From the NCBI GenBank assembly GCA_045537795.1, contig JAZSQE010000068.1, positions 56,252 to 120,251 of the forward strand: 64,000 nt of DNA, given 5' to 3'. The stretch is from Kiritimatiellia bacterium (lineage in GTDB: Bacteria; Verrucomicrobiota; Kiritimatiellia; RFP12; UBA1067). The notes below the pieces were generated by a model. The model worked only from the letters and a program-made list of their open reading frames with translations, was not told the DNA's origin and did no database searches. A program made the translations under genes and the position numbers. Numbering within the stretch: position 1 is the stretch's first letter; every line of letters begins with the position of its first letter. Shown in pieces: positions 7,239-13,263 of the stretch.

Positions 7239-8365
7239 CCTTTCACGTAACGTTCCACACGCGAACCAAGAGAGCAGATTATGTCGTAGGCGTGGGTGCC
7301 TTTTATCGCCGCCCAGTCATCGGGCGTGATGGAGTCGTTCCCGACGCGGCCGAGACAGATGACTTCGTCGCCGGGGGCGACCGCGCCGAGATGCGAAACA
7401 TCGACGGTCGTATAATCCATCGAGACGCGACCGACGATCGGGCATCTGACGCCGCCGATGAAGACGCTCCCGCGGTTGCCGAGCGCGAGCGGCAACCCGT
7501 CGGCGTATCCGGCTGAAATCGTAGCGATCTTCGAGCGGTTCGGGAGACACCACGTCCGCCCGTAGCCGAGCGTCGTGCCGGCGTCGAGGCTGCGCACCTG
7601 CGCGACACGCGTCTTTAGCGTCAGCACCGGCTCCACCTTCAGAGTCTTTCGCCCCGCGGGATCGAAACTCCCATGTAGATTGATGCCGGTCCTTACGAGA
7701 TTGAACGGCGCTTTTGCCGCCTCGGGAAAATTGTTGAGGGCGTCGCTTGCGGCTATATGCACCTTGTCGAACACGTATCCCTTCGCCGCGAGTTTCCTGA
7801 CGAGAGAGGCGAAACGCGAAATCTGGCCGGCGGTAAAAGGATGCTTCGGATCGTACGCCACGGGACAATGCGAAAAGATCCCTTCGGGGCGGAGGTTCTT
7901 TAATTTTGCCGTTTTCGCGACGACGCCGGGAGCCTCGGTCACGGGAATGCCGAGCCTACCCATCCCGGAATCGATCTTGATATGCACCTTCGCCTTGACG
8001 CGCGCTTCAGCCGCCGCACGGTCGATGAGGCGCGCCGAGTCGAAATCGGTCACGGGGAGCGTCACTCCCGACGCTACCATTTCGCCGATTTCATCGGGAA
8101 GAACGCTCGAGAGTATCTGCACGTCGGCATCGATCCCCTCGCGCAGAAAAAGATCTTTCAACTCTTTCGCTTCGCACGGTTCGGCGATGCCGAAGCGTCT
8201 GCAGCCGGCGGCCGCAAGGGCTTTGGCGTAAGGTGCAACGCCGAGACCATAGGCATTCGCCTTGAGTACCGCCAGAACTTCGGCGGGCGCGGCGTACTGC
8301 ACTATGCGCCGGTAGTTTCTGACGAGAGCCTTGAGATCGATCTCGACGCGAACACGCTTTTTCAT
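7235..8365 (-). CDS. alr: Alanine racemase
   Basis: AVLKANAYGLG contains the PLP-binding lysine context. The 376-aa length and the C-terminal beta domain (..GRVSMDYTTVDV..) are also typical. Confidence 0.93.
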   Translation of the reverse strand: MKKRVRVEIDLKALVRNYRRIVQYAAPAEVLAVLKANAYGLGVAPYAKALAAAGCRRFGIAEPCEAKELKDLFLREGIDADVQILSSVLPDEIGEMVASGVTLPVTDFDSARLIDRAAAEARVKAKVHIKIDSGMGRLGIPVTEAPGVVAKTAKLKNLRPEGIFSHCPVAYDPKHPFTAGQISRFASLVRKLAAKGYVFDKVHIAASDALNNFPEAAKAPFNLVRTGINLHGSFDPAGRKTLKVEPVLTLKTRVAQVRSLDAGTTLGYGRTWCLPNRSKIATISAGYADGLPLALGNRGSVFIGGVRCPIVGRVSMDYTTVDVSHLGAVAPGDEVICLGRVGNDSITPDDWAAIKGTHAYDIICSLGSRVERYVKG

Positions 8366-10500
8366 CTCATCAGGTCCTTGCCGTAATCGCGTTCCATACG
8401 TTTGAGCTTCCAGCGGATCTGCTCCGTGCCGCCGCCGTATTCCATCGACGGCTCCCAGCCGAGGCGCGAATCGTTTTCGACGAAGACGAGCGCCGCCTTG
8501 GCGTTGGCGTATTCGGCGCGGGCCGCCTCCATGAGTTCCTTTCCGTCTCCGTTCCTGAACGCGATCGCGCCGCGTTTGACGTTGACGGCCGTGCGGCAGG
8601 CGGCGGCGAAATATCCGGCGAGATTCGCCATGTTCTCGGCCTGGGCCTTCCGCCGGCCGGAGAGACCGTTCGCCATCGCGAGGAATTCAGCGCGCCCCTC
8701 TTCATAACGCGCGGCCATCGGCTCGAGAAGTTCGATCTCCTTGGCGAAATATTCGTTGTCCATGCGCTCCGGAGTGAGCTGCGGCACATAGCCCTCCTTC
8801 AGGTAATCGAGGCGGCAGATGCCGATGGAGTTCGACGCGTATTTCTTCGCGGGGAACTCCTCTTTCGTCGCCGTGGCGCGCCCGAACGTGAACGGATAGG
8901 CGGGGCCGATCCTGAAAGTGCCGTACTGGTTGCAGTCGGTCGGCACGTAGTCTTCGGCCGATTCGCTCCACGACTTCCAGACGGCGACGGCCGTATCGGC
9001 GTTCTCTTCGCCGAAGTCGCGCGCGGCGATCATCCTGAGATGGCGGTCGAAGGGAATGCCGCCTTTGACGTACGCCTCCTTCTCGAGTTCCGCGACAAAG
9101 CTCGGCCACCAGCCAAAGTGATGGTTCTCCATCACGCCTGTCAGGTTCCACTTCGCGTTCGCTTCGCGAAGCGCGCTCCAGCGGCGGTTCCACTGCTGCG
9201 GAACAGGTTGATAGGGAACGACGCCGAAGTCCCACGTAAGACCCGACGCGTTCGCCTGAGTGTAGAACTTGAGCCCGCGCATCTTCGCGCGCTCGGCTTC
9301 GCTGACGAAATACTTGCCCGGTCCCGCGAACGAAATCGTGTAATCGGCGGTCGGGCAGTCGATGCCATTGCGCTTTTTGCGGCGTTCAAACATTTCGAAG
9401 GTGGCCATAAGCGTTACGTCCTTCGGCAACGCGTCGATAAGCCTGAGTCGATCCTCCTTCGGCGCCCAGCCCCAGTTGTACGTCCAGAATACGAGCTCCT
9501 GACGCGGGGCTTTGGCCTTGATCGCGCTCTTGACGGCGTCGAGCCATTCGGGATAGTCCGTACAGGGGAACCAGCCCGCGAGAGGACGCTTGTCCTTCTC
9601 GTCGCGCGTCTGCCACATGCGCGGCTGGACGCGCGGATCTTTCGAGGGGAACTGGCAGCTCTCGCCGACGAGAATTATTCCCTTCGCTTCGGGATAATGC
9701 CCGGCGATCCGTCCGTAGGCGTTATTGATCGCCTCGCGCCCGCCCTTGTCGGCAGGATGCGCGAACGCTGTGATGTAGGAATAAAGGTACGTGTCGAGAC
9801 CGTATTTTGCGGCGCGGCGGATAAGCGCCGTGATATCCTGATAGTCCTGCGCCTTCGTCTTGTCGATATCGTCGAGAAAGACGAGGATTGATGTCATGCC
9901 GAAGTGAGCCATCTGAATGAGATGCTCGTCGGGAAAGATATCGTTTCCGTAGCCGGAGTGCGTCATCCTCACCTTCATGAGACTGTGACGCGTCGAAGTT
10001 GCGACCTCGAGGAACGGTGCGCCCCTGAGATTCATGAGATCTTCGAGATGATAAACGCCCTGGGCCGTCTGGCGCTCGTCATACCCCATCACGCTCACCG
10101 CGCCGCAACCGACGCTGACGCGGCACGAGTCGGCTTTGAGCTGCGCGCCGCGGTCGGCGTCTGCATAATCGCGTTGCGAACCGATGACAATCGTGTTTTC
10201 GGCCCCGACGGGCAGACGCGAGAAGCGCCTGATGCACGCTTCGATCTCCATCGAGACGGCGAGATAATCCTCAAAGTCGCGGGCGAGGCGATAGATGAAA
10301 TCGTTCGCATCTTCGCGTATGGCAATGACCGCGCCGTCCTTTATCTCGCACTCCGACGCTTTGCATTTCGCGTCCTTGTCGCGCATACCGCTTTTATGCA
10401 CCGTTTCGAGGCGCTTCCTGAAATCGTATTCTTTCTCCTTGACCGCAAAAACCCCCGAAGCGGTCAACGCCGCCGCCAGCGGCAGAACGAATCTTTTCAT
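8362..10500 (-). CDS. Secreted protein of unknown function, possibly a glycoside-hydrolase-like (beta/alpha)8 barrel
   Basis: The long ORF has the signal peptide MKRFVLPLAAALTASGVFA. I trimmed the start to ATG 10500, which has an AAAGGG SD; the track start at 10527 is a TTG. The central region has alternating strand/helix character (..GIILVGES.., ..LVFWTYNWGW..). I recognised no catalytic motif, so the function is a guess. Confidence 0.75.
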   Translation of the reverse strand: MKRFVLPLAAALTASGVFAVKEKEYDFRKRLETVHKSGMRDKDAKCKASECEIKDGAVIAIREDANDFIYRLARDFEDYLAVSMEIEACIRRFSRLPVGAENTIVIGSQRDYADADRGAQLKADSCRVSVGCGAVSVMGYDERQTAQGVYHLEDLMNLRGAPFLEVATSTRHSLMKVRMTHSGYGNDIFPDEHLIQMAHFGMTSILVFLDDIDKTKAQDYQDITALIRRAAKYGLDTYLYSYITAFAHPADKGGREAINNAYGRIAGHYPEAKGIILVGESCQFPSKDPRVQPRMWQTRDEKDKRPLAGWFPCTDYPEWLDAVKSAIKAKAPRQELVFWTYNWGWAPKEDRLRLIDALPKDVTLMATFEMFERRKKRNGIDCPTADYTISFAGPGKYFVSEAERAKMRGLKFYTQANASGLTWDFGVVPYQPVPQQWNRRWSALREANAKWNLTGVMENHHFGWWPSFVAELEKEAYVKGGIPFDRHLRMIAARDFGEENADTAVAVWKSWSESAEDYVPTDCNQYGTFRIGPAYPFTFGRATATKEEFPAKKYASNSIGICRLDYLKEGYVPQLTPERMDNEYFAKEIELLEPMAARYEEGRAEFLAMANGLSGRRKAQAENMANLAGYFAAACRTAVNVKRGAIAFRNGDGKELMEAARAEYANAKAALVFVENDSRLGWEPSMEYGGGTEQIRWKLKRMERDYGKDLMR

Positions 10501-10534
10501 CTTGGTATACCCTTTCATATTTTTCAACAGATAC

Positions 10535-10543
10535 AGTATACCA
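10535..10543 (-). promoter_or_regulatory. Extended -10-like element TGGTATACT upstream of the 8362..10500 operon
   Basis: The reverse complement of agtatacca is TGGTATACT. It would give a leader of about 28 nt to ATG 10500. Confidence 0.4.
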
Positions 10544-10700
10544 AATTTAGCGGTCAGATATCGGCGTATATCATAGAATATCTTGATAGGGTGACAAGAC
10601 GAAGTAACGATATTGCATCCGTTTCAGCATCACCTTAATTTTGGCAAAAGACAGAAAGCCGAAGAGCGATAAGATTTTTCCGCATTGAATTCTCATTTTA

Positions 10701-10709
10701 TGGTATAAT
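10701..10709 (+). promoter_or_regulatory. Extended -10 promoter element TGGTATAAT reading into the repeat array
   Basis: This is an exact TGGTATAAT in the AT-rich gap. It is followed by the tandem 11-mers GTTGTGGGAAA and GTTGTGGGACA (10717-10738) and then the repeat array. Confidence 0.45.
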
Positions 10710-10746
10710 GTGTCGCGTTGTGGGAAAGTTGTGGGACAAGAAGATA

Positions 10747-10892
10747 TTATCGGTATAAGAAAATCTTGTCGATATGAGAAAAGTTTATCGGTAAGGAAAA
10801 AGTTTATAGATATGAGAAAAATCGTCGATAAGATAAAATTTGTCGGTAAGAGAAAAATTTGTCGGTAAGATAAAAGCCGATATGAGAAAGAC
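10747..10892 (+). repeat. Tandem array of eight degenerate 17-20-bp direct repeats (iteron-like or operator-like)
   Basis: The head-to-tail units are: ttatcggtataagaaaatc, ttgtcgatatgagaaaagt, ttatcggtaaggaaaaagt, ttatagatatgagaaaaatc, gtcgataagataaaatt, tgtcggtaagagaaaaatt, tgtcggtaagataaaag and ccgatatgagaaagac. There are no spacers between units, and the last unit contains the start codon of the next ORF. Confidence 0.85.
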
Positions 10893-11871
10893 TTATCAAC
10901 ATTCGGCGTATTGGTACGCATACAACAAAGGATGGACGCATAGCGATAAGCGTTCATTTGCCGAGCAATATCTTGATTTTCATACATACAGACCCCGCCC
11001 TCGAATGAAGTCTTGCATCAGAGAGCGTCCTTCGCGTGCTTACGGCTCCGGCGGCGGATATTACGGTGCGCGGGGCTCAGGCAGAGAGTATTATGGAGAA
11101 TGGAAATACGGCTACGAAAACGACTTCGATTTCAAAGAATGGAAGAAATGGCGAGATTCATCGAACCTGCCAGACTCCGCTTTCAACCCCCTTTTGTTCG
11201 GCGCTTGCATCGCGATGGATATTGGTGTCGCGATGCGCCATCACGTAAAGACGCTGAAAGACCCCGTGGAGCGCGACCGCATAAAGCGCGAACTTATGCG
11301 CGATTTAAGAATAATCCGCCGCCCCTTCTACTACGAGCGCGAAAAAGCGCGGCGTCGCGAGCTTGCCGCCGAACGTCGCAAGATTCGCCGACGCTCCACG
11401 ACGGCGCCTATGCCTACGCCGGAAAGCATCATGACGGCCTGGGAGAAACGCAAAGACTCGCAGGAGGCGATGATCGTTCTCGGCGCAATGTTGCATGATT
11501 TAGAATGTTACGTCGACAATTGCCTTAAATTCGACAATACGGGCGCGGTCGTCGGCCGCAACGGAGGAATCCGCGGATGGCTTAAAGAAAATCTCCCTGA
11601 GCTCGCGCCGAAATACAAAACGCTTATGCGCTACAAGGCGCTCGCCGTGAGGCTGCGGCAAGTGACCGAAACGAAAGACCCGACACCCACATCAGCGCTT
11701 CTCGACGAGCCGCGCAAAGAAAAAGTCGTCGCCCTTCTTTCGGAAACAAAGCCCTTCTTCACGCATGTCTTCGAATATCTCGAACACGAGCTCTCGGCAG
11801 AGACGGTATTTCTCGACAAGCCGCGAGCGGCGGCTTCGCCGCGACCACATAGACCACGGGAGCCGGCTTAA
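10882..11871 (+). CDS. Orphan hypothetical protein (329 aa), basic, with a possible DNA-binding helix segment
   Basis: The ORF is in frame with track ORF 10840..11871, and I trimmed it to the first ATG (MRKTYQHS). It has a Tyr/Gly-rich N-terminal part (GGGYYGARGSGREYYGEWKYGYE) and an Arg-rich coiled segment (REKARRRELAAERRKIRRR). The segment GGIRGWLKENLPELAPKYKTLMRYKALAVRL loosely resembles the W-x2-WL..N..(RT)A..YM(R/K)LA helix-turn-helix motif of phage/plasmid DUF3102-type proteins. That resemblance is from memory and is weak. Confidence 0.6.
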   Translation: MRKTYQHSAYWYAYNKGWTHSDKRSFAEQYLDFHTYRPRPRMKSCIRERPSRAYGSGGGYYGARGSGREYYGEWKYGYENDFDFKEWKKWRDSSNLPDSAFNPLLFGACIAMDIGVAMRHHVKTLKDPVERDRIKRELMRDLRIIRRPFYYEREKARRRELAAERRKIRRRSTTAPMPTPESIMTAWEKRKDSQEAMIVLGAMLHDLECYVDNCLKFDNTGAVVGRNGGIRGWLKENLPELAPKYKTLMRYKALAVRLRQVTETKDPTPTSALLDEPRKEKVVALLSETKPFFTHVFEYLEHELSAETVFLDKPRAAASPRPHRPREPA

Positions 11872-12007: not shown

Positions 12008-12016
12008 TGGTATAAT
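12008..12016 (+). promoter_or_regulatory. Extended -10 promoter TGGTATAAT placed 8 nt before the dinB ATG (leaderless-type arrangement)
   Basis: The sequence is TGGTATAAT-gcctgccg-ATG(12025). No SD is possible in the 8-nt interval. Confidence 0.5.
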
Positions 12017-12024
12017 GCCTGCCG

Positions 12025-13263
12025 ATGAAAACGATTTTGCATGTCGACATGGACGCGTTCTTCGCGTCGGTGGAACTTCTCGCCCACCCCGAGTGGCGCG
12101 GGAAGCCCCTCATTGTCGGCGCGGGGCCTCACGAACGCGGCGTCGTTTCGACCTGCTCGTACGAGGCGCGCAAATACGGTATTCATTCCGCAATGCCTTC
12201 GAGAACGGCCTACGCGCTTTGTCCCCACGCGATATTCACGCCTCCGAACGGCCGGATGTACACGGAAGTCTCCGAAAAGGCGTTCGAAGTCTTCGGGCAT
12301 TTCACCCCGTATATAGAAGCCGTCTCGATCGACGAAGCTTTTCTTGACATAACGGGGTCGATCCACCTTTACGCAAGCGCGCGCGAACTTGGCGAAACGC
12401 TCCGCTCCGAAGTAAAGCGCGCGTGCGGCGTAACGTGCTCGGTCGGCATCGCGCCCAACCGTCTTCTTGCGAAAATAGGCTCCGAGGAAAACAAGCCCGA
12501 TGCGCTGACGATGATGCCTTTCGAACGCGGCGAAATCGCCGCGTTTCTCGAATCAAAGCCCATCTCGGTTTTATGGGGCGTCGGCAAAAAGACGGCGGAG
12601 ATGCTGAAACCGTACGGACTTTCGCTCTGCGGCGACATCCAGCGCACCGACACGGAACGTCTGGCGGCGGTGCTCGGTTCGCGGACGGCCGCCGAAACGC
12701 TGAAGAATTATGCGTTGGGCATCTCCGATGACACCGTGTACTGGGAAGAAGAGCCCGAGAAATCGGTTTCGAACGAACATACTTTCGGCGAAGACGAAAC
12801 GCACCGCGAAATCGTGCGCGCGAAGCTAATCGAACTCGCCGCGAAAGTCGGACGGCGTTTCAGAAGACGCGAGCGATGGGCCGCGACGGCCAAAATGAAA
12901 CTGCGCAATGCCGTCTTCGAAACGTTTTCGCGTCAGATCCCTTTCGACCCTCCCGCCCGTGACGATATATCCTTCCGAGAAAAGGCGCTCGAACTTTTCG
13001 ATGCGATGTGGCCGGAAAACATACGCGCGAAAACGGGGAGAGAAGCCGTGCGCCTGATCGGTTTCGGCGTCGGCAATATTCGCCGGACGCCGCCGGACAG
13101 CGGACAGATGACCCTCTTCCCGTCACCTGACGACAGCGCCCGCAAAAAACGCGAACGCCTTTCGGAAGTCCTCGACAATCTTCACGGCAAAGGGCTGCGC
13201 GTCGCGGAAGGCTTCGGCGCCATACGCGAAACGCGACGCACGGACGGCAAAACAGGCCGGTAA
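12025..13263 (+). CDS. dinB: DNA polymerase IV (Y-family translesion polymerase)
   Basis: ILHVDMDAFFASVE, SYEARKYGIHSAMP and SIDEAFLDIT are canonical DinB/UmuC-family motifs. Confidence 0.93.
   Translation: MKTILHVDMDAFFASVELLAHPEWRGKPLIVGAGPHERGVVSTCSYEARKYGIHSAMPSRTAYALCPHAIFTPPNGRMYTEVSEKAFEVFGHFTPYIEAVSIDEAFLDITGSIHLYASARELGETLRSEVKRACGVTCSVGIAPNRLLAKIGSEENKPDALTMMPFERGEIAAFLESKPISVLWGVGKKTAEMLKPYGLSLCGDIQRTDTERLAAVLGSRTAAETLKNYALGISDDTVYWEEEPEKSVSNEHTFGEDETHREIVRAKLIELAAKVGRRFRRRERWAATAKMKLRNAVFETFSRQIPFDPPARDDISFREKALELFDAMWPENIRAKTGREAVRLIGFGVGNIRRTPPDSGQMTLFPSPDDSARKKRERLSEVLDNLHGKGLRVAEGFGAIRETRRTDGKTGR

Follow-up and report, generated by a model that had tools for sequence, protein, structure and literature searches.

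Tandem arrays of short period in intergenic or 5' regions, such as the variable-number tandem repeats (VNTRs) and mycobacterial interspersed repetitive units (MIRUs) of mycobacteria and other bacteria, vary in copy number between close relatives. Iteron replicons, among them P1, F, R6K, pSC101 and RK2, carry a Rep gene together with iterons of 17-22 bp. Start codons at the 5' terminus of leadered mRNAs are bound by 70S ribosomes and can alter downstream expression (PMC4965119). Here, we analyzed a stretch of 64,000 nucleotides (referred to as the window) from a Kiritimatiellia bacterium (assembly GCA_045537795.1, contig JAZSQE010000068.1, positions 56,252 to 120,251 of the forward strand), in which a tandem array of ~19-bp repeats runs into the start of a gene for a basic protein, P0001. 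A preliminary description of this DNA had read the array as plasmid or phage iterons with an autoregulated initiator or repressor. The array is a real feature, and the interpretation first given to it was wrong. In the account that we favor, and that we consider probable if by no means secure, the array is an amplification of the start segment behind a conserved promoter in a multicopy, cassette-like gene, it renders translation damped or conditional, and it is neither a replication origin nor a conserved operator.

Results

Origin of the tandem array

The array lies in an AT-rich island (10500-10900) with a G+C content of 0.325-0.37, against 0.55-0.66 in both flanks. The island is bounded by a minus-strand gene for a secreted 712-aa protein (ATG at 10500) and by the plus-strand open reading frame (ORF) of 329 codons at 10882-11871; it is located on a chromosomal contig of 126 kb, between the gene for this secreted glycan-type protein and dinB. 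The features on which the comparison below depends are as follows.

10717-10897, plus strand: whole tandem array, ~10 units (two 11-mers and eight 16-22-mers) with a period of 18-19 nt
10644-11817, plus strand: gene module shared by the window and locus L052, from 34 nt upstream of the family motif to the codons for ...TVFLD
10728-10887, plus strand: extra segment of 160 bp absent from L052, the body of the array, as placed by blastn junctions and MAFFT alignment
10678-10698, plus strand: family motif TTCCGCA-N7-CTCATTT, which reads TTCCGCATTGAATTCTCATTT at this locus, imperfectly palindromic and overlapping the promoter in its -35/spacer region
10701-10709, plus strand: extended -10 box TGGTATAAT that serves the module, lacking a usable -35 element, at a distance from the motif that is conserved in paralogues and homologues
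10882-11871, plus strand: P0001, a 329-aa family protein, all-helical and basic, with no known domain and under purifying selection

Tandem Repeats Finder (TRF) placed an array at 10739-10889 with a period of 19 nt, 7.3 copies and 74% matches, together with a higher-scoring super-period of 37 nt (3.6 copies, TRF score 137). A second repeat search returned the same unit families, with the last copy (10878-10897) spanning the ATG and the five first codons of the ORF. The units diverge by ~26% and are of an A type (..GATATGAGAAAA..) and a B type (..GGTAAGAGAAAA..); the unit at 10770-10789 is 85% identical to that at 10878-10897. The 11-mers GTTGTGGGAAA/GTTGTGGGACA at 10717-10738 are part of the same array, and ATGAGAAA occurs at 10774, 10812 and 10882. 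When one mismatch at most was allowed, the degenerate core TCGRTAWGAKAAAA was found at 7 places in the window, 6 of them in the array, with 0.11 expected. The exact core occurs in the 2.36-Mb genome in this array only, and the 19-mer is not a dispersed repeat such as the REP-like element that had been entertained in the preliminary description. The AT-rich island with tandem iteron-like repeats reported there was borne out by TRF, the repeat search and base composition, and the TGGTATAAT box, the tandem 11-mers, the three ATGAGAAA starts and two upstream ORFs (uORFs) are where it had put them. Its eight repeats at 10747-10892 are likewise present, while their extent had been drawn too short, since the two 11-mers join the same array; and the period, given as close to two helical turns, is in fact 18-19 bp, or 1.7-1.8 turns.

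The closest homologue of P0001 is P0005 (89% amino-acid identity), encoded at locus L052 on a 5.7-kb contig from another sample. The flanks of L052 are ~87-96% identical to two other contigs of this genome, and the genes flanking it differ from those in the window; from these flanks, L052 is assigned to a sister species, in which the gene occupies another neighborhood. A blastn comparison of the window with L052 yielded two high-scoring segment pairs, 10644-10727 and 10888-11817 (87-88% identity), which are contiguous in L052. The 160-bp expansion between them splits codons 2 and 3 of the ancestral start. In L052 the start reads TGGTATAAT-GTATCGCGTC-GTG GGG AAA ACT TAT CAG CAC, with the GTG 10 nt past the -10 box (TATAAT-N10-GTG); in the window the same GTG stands at 10720, is followed by 160 bases, and ...ACT TAT CAA CAT then resumes. 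As judged from this alignment, the L052 gene is near-leaderless, with the same motif and promoter as the window gene and no array.

The ancestral start segment, GTCGTGGGGAAAACTTATC, consists of the GTG start and codons 2-5. Ten array units align in register to this segment, five of them individually at p<0.03, and the last unit is the ORF start itself. The summed alignment score of the units was 58 against a shuffle mean of 26, a value that 0 of 2000 shuffles reached, although this significance is overstated because the units are not independent. On this comparison, the array is a tandem amplification, confined to this lineage, of the segment in which translation of the gene itself starts. The 37-nt super-period indicates that blocks of two units were amplified again. 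After amplification, the units drifted towards A+T, with ATG re-created in three of them. Given a unit divergence of ~26%, the first duplications were not recent relative to the split from P0005, and the intact ORF has therefore long coexisted with the array.

Three further loci bear on this origin. At L053 (an 84% homologue), ATGGGAAAAACTTATCA is preceded by one further copy, in a sequence that ends ~40 nt upstream of its start. The L054 homologue is identical in motif and promoter, and its leader of 57 nt is free of repeats. The paralogue on contig C66 carries an independent array (23 nt x 5.5) that includes its own start context (p=0.017). A general derivation of all family leader arrays from start regions was also considered and rejected, as it held for the window and C66 alone.

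Leader and upstream reading frames

Between the promoter and the main start, the array creates a series of short frames.

10720-10758, plus strand: uORF0, which opens with the ancestral GTG, 12 codons, translated as VGKLWDKKILSV and a stop, 15 nt from the next start
10774-10794, plus strand: uORF1, MRKVYR and a stop, 6 codons, a decayed copy of the N-terminus MRKTYQ, 17 nt from the next start
10812-10868, plus strand: uORF2, MRKIVDKIKFVGKRKICR and a stop, 18 codons, with the stop 13 nt before the main ATG

All three lie downstream of the -10 box at 10701-10709 and upstream of the main start. The preliminary description did not include uORF0, which in the window is a dead-end frame; the equivalent GTG opens the full ORF in L052. 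The main ATG at 10882 has no Shine-Dalgarno (SD) sequence, whereas leadered family members have AAGGAG. In several family members the ATG follows the -10 box by 6-8 nt, and the leaders of family members are between 9 and 323 nt long. The uORF arrangement is not conserved, being absent from L052 and L054.

Since the extended -10 box is conserved, transcription is predicted to start ~7 nt after it, at ~10716-10720, at or near the old GTG. The mRNA would then have an A-rich leader of ~165 nt with three decoy frames (12, 6 and 18 codons), and ribosomes would reach the ATG at 10882 through a relay of termination and reinitiation or through SD-independent loading. On balance, a protein that is probably sensitive to dose would have its translation damped or made conditional. 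The likely effect of the array, as deduced from this layout, is thus a damped or relayed translation of a dose-sensitive protein of a selfish module. In comparison with P0005 the gene is under purifying selection, with a ratio of non-synonymous to synonymous substitution (dN/dS) of 0.065-0.09 (0.065 over 308 codons, at dS 0.54); as the ORF is intact and so constrained, expression appears to have been retained with the array in place. Among the readings offered in the preliminary description, translational control by uORFs comes closest to the evidence: the uORFs do lie between promoter and main start, even though they are not conserved. A search of Rfam with 10300-11200 at a permissive threshold returned nothing. 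A riboswitch was also considered and set aside, as the leader folds only modestly better than its shuffles (z = -2.4) and has no Rfam match.

The family motif and its promoter

Directly upstream of the -10 box is a 21-bp motif that had been overlooked in the preliminary description. Our search of the genome found 17 exact copies of this motif, compared with 0 in a reversed control, and 24-41 copies when mismatches were allowed. Every paralogue in the genome is preceded by the motif and an extended -10 box; in other genomes, the motif was found upstream of 47 of 48 full-length family genes, always with the extended -10 box next to it. A second motif is located at or just beyond the 3' end of the ORF at 36 of the 48 loci (22 direct, 14 inverted). 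The variable spacers of the two motifs of one module differ by 2.4 mismatches, compared with 3.1 for random pairs, a result matched by 0 of 5000 shuffles. The copy at 10678-10698 is the sole true copy within the window, so the window gene has the left motif only. The palindromy of the motif is moderate, and its best-conserved blocks, TTCCGCA and CTCATTT, are asymmetric. A covarying hairpin was tried as a description of the motif and rejected: among 147 copies, one position is AT in 59 and TA in 28, and 27 copies have an unpaired TT. Across 41 genomes, motif and protein were found together in 9, the protein only in 4 (distant homologues), the motif only in 4, and neither in 24.

Solo motifs were observed just upstream of ordinary genes at G000:C4:1935-1956 and G000:C40:20252-20273. 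Behind the C4 copy, an identical ATGTTATAAT box follows the motif and the downstream gene encodes a Tat-signal protein; the C40 copy precedes the gene for a 490-aa membrane protein, which we take to be of the sodium:alanine-symporter type. The promoter end of the module may thus drive host genes. Within the window, dinB has TGGTATAAT 8 nt before its ATG (12008-12027), a leaderless-type layout that the sister species conserves in the form TGATATAAT.

On the opposite side of the island, the divergent gene (8362-10500, minus strand) encodes the 712-aa protein, whose translation contains a signal peptide. This protein gave a sub-threshold match to PriCT_2 (16.8 bits against a cut-off of 22), which is not meaningful and is no evidence of a replicon. 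Its promoter element lies outside the repeated module.

10535-10543, minus strand: extended -10 box TGGTATACT of the divergent upstream gene, identified in the sequence

Together with TGGTATAAT at 10701-10709 on the plus strand, this box agrees with the divergent extended -10 elements initially reported.

The P0001 family

P0001 had been described as an orphan ORF, a view that is overturned by at least 1,370 homologues, recovered in a search of 5.8 billion proteins, and by paralogues in the same genome. The homologues have no Pfam domain and no informative name, and are mostly on short contigs. The start at 10882 was set by the family N-terminus, M-x-K/R-x-Y-x-HSAYWY, in the family alignment. 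The public-collection protein P0004 (288 aa) begins at Met42 (ATG 11005), and the conserved HSAYWYAY..GWT.S shows that the true start is the one at 10882. Longer ORF fusions in relatives were examined and dismissed as spurious upstream extensions. The paralogues are found on five other contigs and include two of the same type (63-64%), two longer proteins that share the core, and one relic of 54 aa. The conserved core of P0001 lies at about residues 84-305. This relic (G000:C9:21676-21837, minus strand) is 91% identical to P0001 residues 253-306 and is what is left of another member of the window subfamily in this genome. The long-type paralogues (G000:C43:44956-46135 and G000:C54:10058-11428) have perfect inverted motif copies on both sides; their right motif is read as KNEITVRN within the conserved C-terminus of the ORF, and in each of the C43 and C54 copies a C/A motif variant is common to both arms.

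The family was detected in 13 of 41 related genomes, with 1-16 matches each, often at contig ends. The 80 loci from species-representative genomes all come from gut or rumen metagenome-assembled genomes (MAGs), nearly all of them Kiritimatiellia or listed under older lineage names, with yak, goat, sheep, cattle, human and chicken as hosts. P0001 had no match among Pfam, PHROGs, NCBIfam, PADLOC and PDB sequence profiles, and a tblastn search of 72,556 plasmids, 50,697 phage genomes and IMG/VR contigs detected no relative. The AlphaFold2 model of P0001 is all-helical, with a mean predicted local distance difference test (pLDDT) score of 74 and 219 of 329 residues at 70 or above; a Foldseek search of PDB and BFVD with this model of pLDDT 74 gave no match. 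In addition, no paper on the family was found in full-text literature searches.

Copies of the module are sharply bounded. In one MAG, two copies match at 93% identity over 1,051 bp while their flanks are unrelated; the similarity extends from ~10 bp before the left motif to the stop of the ORF. One relative (G032) has 125 motif copies, many in head-to-tail strings with segments of 60-165 bp. Because the copies are multiple, patchily distributed, mostly bracketed by motifs and sharply bounded, the family is probably a repeated, cassette-like module that is selfish or mobile. No transposase or recombinase domain or fold was matched in P0001; in the genome as a whole, there are two genes for tyrosine recombinases and two weak hits to Y1, none of which is adjacent. 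In relatives and in the sister species, dinB is found in other contexts.

Two of the G032 strings were inspected individually. At L144 (G032:C98:25000-27671) and L145 (G032:C102:52500-54025), eight direct motifs are each followed by one of about four segment types. The L144 string leads straight into a long-type family gene, and L145 stops at the contig end before any gene; the layout resembles that of an integron or a pile-up of miniature inverted-repeat transposable elements (MITEs). At the orthologous loci L096, L103 and L104, from three MAGs, identity is 94-96% in the flanks and 88-93% in the family ORF, and ~750 bp upstream and ~200 bp downstream of the ORF are nearly unalignable. By these alignments, the non-coding parts of the module are hypervariable and evolve far faster than the chromosome around them.

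Tandem arrays accompany the family more widely. Arrays occur in the leaders of 11 of 47 family loci, in the 400 bp before the motif at ~22 loci, and beyond the downstream motif at 14. Their periods range from 7 to 63 nt and they have no common sequence, with units and positions that differ. Of the 122 arrays in the genome with a TRF score of at least 60, 14 lie within 400 bp of a motif, including 11 of the 25 strongest, and some (C1, C25 and C37) lie between two direct motif copies. The supposition that the repeats belong with the adjacent basic protein was therefore sound, in that arrays are statistically associated with the gene family. Arrays may be tolerated or selected in the modules; alternatively, duplication nearby may be promoted by a process that the motif directs, such as the stalling of forks, nicking or recombination. 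Construction of the arrays from motif half-sites was tried and found no support (8% of arrays at p<0.05). A second, unrelated dispersed family of 8-mer tandem repeats (AACATTCN / CATTCAAA), with periods of 8, 16 and 24, was observed at more than 15 loci, on G000 contigs C71, C59, C48, C12, C9, C60, C19, C68, C49, C54, C41, C25, C52 and C29; some of these loci are near motif copies of the C34/C48/C49 type.

Discussion

Several results weigh against the account given above. The transcription start, the translation of the uORFs and the effect on expression are predictions. The start-segment origin fits only the window and C66, most other leader arrays being unlike their own start. When the comparison was confined to intergenic DNA, which a crude ORF mask put at 7.9% of the genome, a motif was near 7 of the 13 strongest arrays against 5.5% expected (p = 2e-6). 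Such an enrichment suggests that some systematic cause is at work, be it a role in binding or a mutational process that acts locally, and the uORF model leaves it unexplained. P0001, being basic and helical, may bind DNA, the array units included. As for mobility, no pair of filled and empty sites was found in relatives or the sister species, and no target duplication at 11 bracketed copies.

The main rival is that the array is a neutral by-product of slippage-prone, AT-rich non-coding DNA in a selfish module, with accidental uORFs and expression nearly unaffected or set otherwise. We consider this rather improbable, although much is consistent with it: the units are decayed (74% matches), close homologues and orthologous loci with 94-96% identical flanks have no array or a different one, no sequence theme is common to the arrays, and purifying selection acts on the gene with or without an array. 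Yet translation could hardly be indifferent to ~165 nt and four start codons placed between a near-leaderless promoter and an ATG that lacks an SD sequence. In addition, ATG was re-created in three units, the gaps from a stop to the next start are a regular 13-17 nt, and the enrichment of arrays around the motif exceeds the intergenic background. A phase-variable contingency switch, in which gain or loss of an 18-19-nt unit would alter the uORFs and turn the gene on or off within a population, would profit from a unit length that is not a multiple of 3 and from copy numbers of none, ~2 and ~10 among the three closest homologues; efficient slippage, however, needs near-identical repeats, and units that are only ~74% alike make such a switch very unlikely.

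A different function would follow if P0001 or a host factor bound the 19-mers as a multi-site operator or iteron-like array, and so repressed or handcuffed the promoter. The direct repeats do adjoin the promoter and extend over the start of a gene whose product is basic and helical; about half of the family loci have an array of one kind or another in their flanks, where arrays are enriched; and the units hold TTCTCAT (the reverse complement of ATGAGAA), which is also in the right block of the motif (p=0.045, uncorrected for multiple tests). Such sites, however, are conserved together with their protein, and the closest homologue, with an 89% identical protein and an identical promoter, has no array. 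Moreover, units, periods (7-63 nt) and positions differ among paralogues whose proteins are 60-65% identical, motif half-sites are not generally enriched in arrays (8% at p<0.05), and the conserved candidate for a binding site is the 21-bp motif rather than the array; we therefore regard an operator as unlikely. Least probable of all, and close to refuted, is a plasmid- or phage-type replication origin (iterons plus Rep) integrated in the chromosome. Its signature of an AT-rich island with 17-20-bp direct repeats beside a gene for a basic protein is present, and the array includes at least three direct repeats of ~17-22 bp with a conserved core. Against this, the gene belongs to a chromosomal family of 5-16 copies per genome with no plasmid, phage or viral-contig homologue, P0001 has no Rep (winged-helix) domain or fold, the island has no excess of DnaA boxes, and the neighbors are housekeeping genes; the array itself is downstream of the promoter, derived from the coding start segment and absent from the sister copy. 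The same facts, together with the unrelated arrays of the paralogues, speak against iterons that serve an autoregulated initiator or repressor.

A broader proposal is that the motif and the P0001-type protein form an undescribed site-specific cassette system that acts in the manner of an integron or a REP-RAYT pair through a protein with a new fold. Motif-directed transactions would make the next few hundred base pairs prone to tandem duplication, and the array would be their footprint on the start of the gene itself. We put this forward as a speculation that is possible, if doubtful; if true, it would explain both the locus-specific arrays and the hypervariable leaders throughout the family, and if the link between motif and array is enzymatic, it would represent a new kind of localized mutagenesis or recombination.

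The amplification of the start segment that we favor is of use for annotation, as it removes a false origin or iteron call, corrects a gene start and places a supposed orphan in a family of more than 1,300 members. It also provides a clear natural example of how a near-leaderless gene became leadered and laden with uORFs as its own initiation region was amplified, and, for an undescribed family of rumen and gut Kiritimatiellia whose protein is without a known domain, it is a further, well-resolved case.

Comparison with known systems

The resemblance to the iteron replicons consists of ~19-bp AT-rich repeats that abut the promoter and start of a gene for a basic protein. In contrast to the iterons, the repeats of the window lie in a predicted transcribed leader, derive from the gene's own start and are absent from the closest homologue, and the family is chromosomal and multicopy, with no match of P0001 to a Rep or winged-helix protein. 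Repetitive extragenic palindromic (REP) elements with their associated tyrosine transposases (RAYTs), the attC cassettes of integrons, and insertion sequences (IS) with MITEs share with the module a dispersed, partly palindromic motif that is present in 17-125 copies per genome and brackets one gene, a patchy multicopy distribution and, in one relative, short head-to-tail cassettes. Of the known systems, these come closest to the module. Their defining protein features are missing, however: P0001 has no signature or fold of an HUH/Y1, DDE, serine or tyrosine recombinase, the window copy has the left motif only, and locus-specific tandem arrays accompany the modules; with respect to REP/RAYT in particular, P0001 gave no Y1_Tnp match and the motifs are inverted at only 14 of 36 loci. 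The array differs from VNTR/MIRU-type repeats in that its units are highly diverged, occur at a single locus and are built from a translation-initiation region. Leaders with uORFs or a 5'-terminal upstream AUG (5'-uAUG), as described in E. coli (PMC4965119), resemble the window in a start near the predicted 5' end of the mRNA, in serial short ORFs and in their spacing of 13-17 nt; the uORFs of the window differ in being decayed duplicates of the main N-terminus that arose by tandem amplification, and they are not conserved and have no evident sensing function. Overall, by this comparison the iteron likeness is superficial, and the array is mechanistically closest to the uORF and 5'-uAUG leaders.

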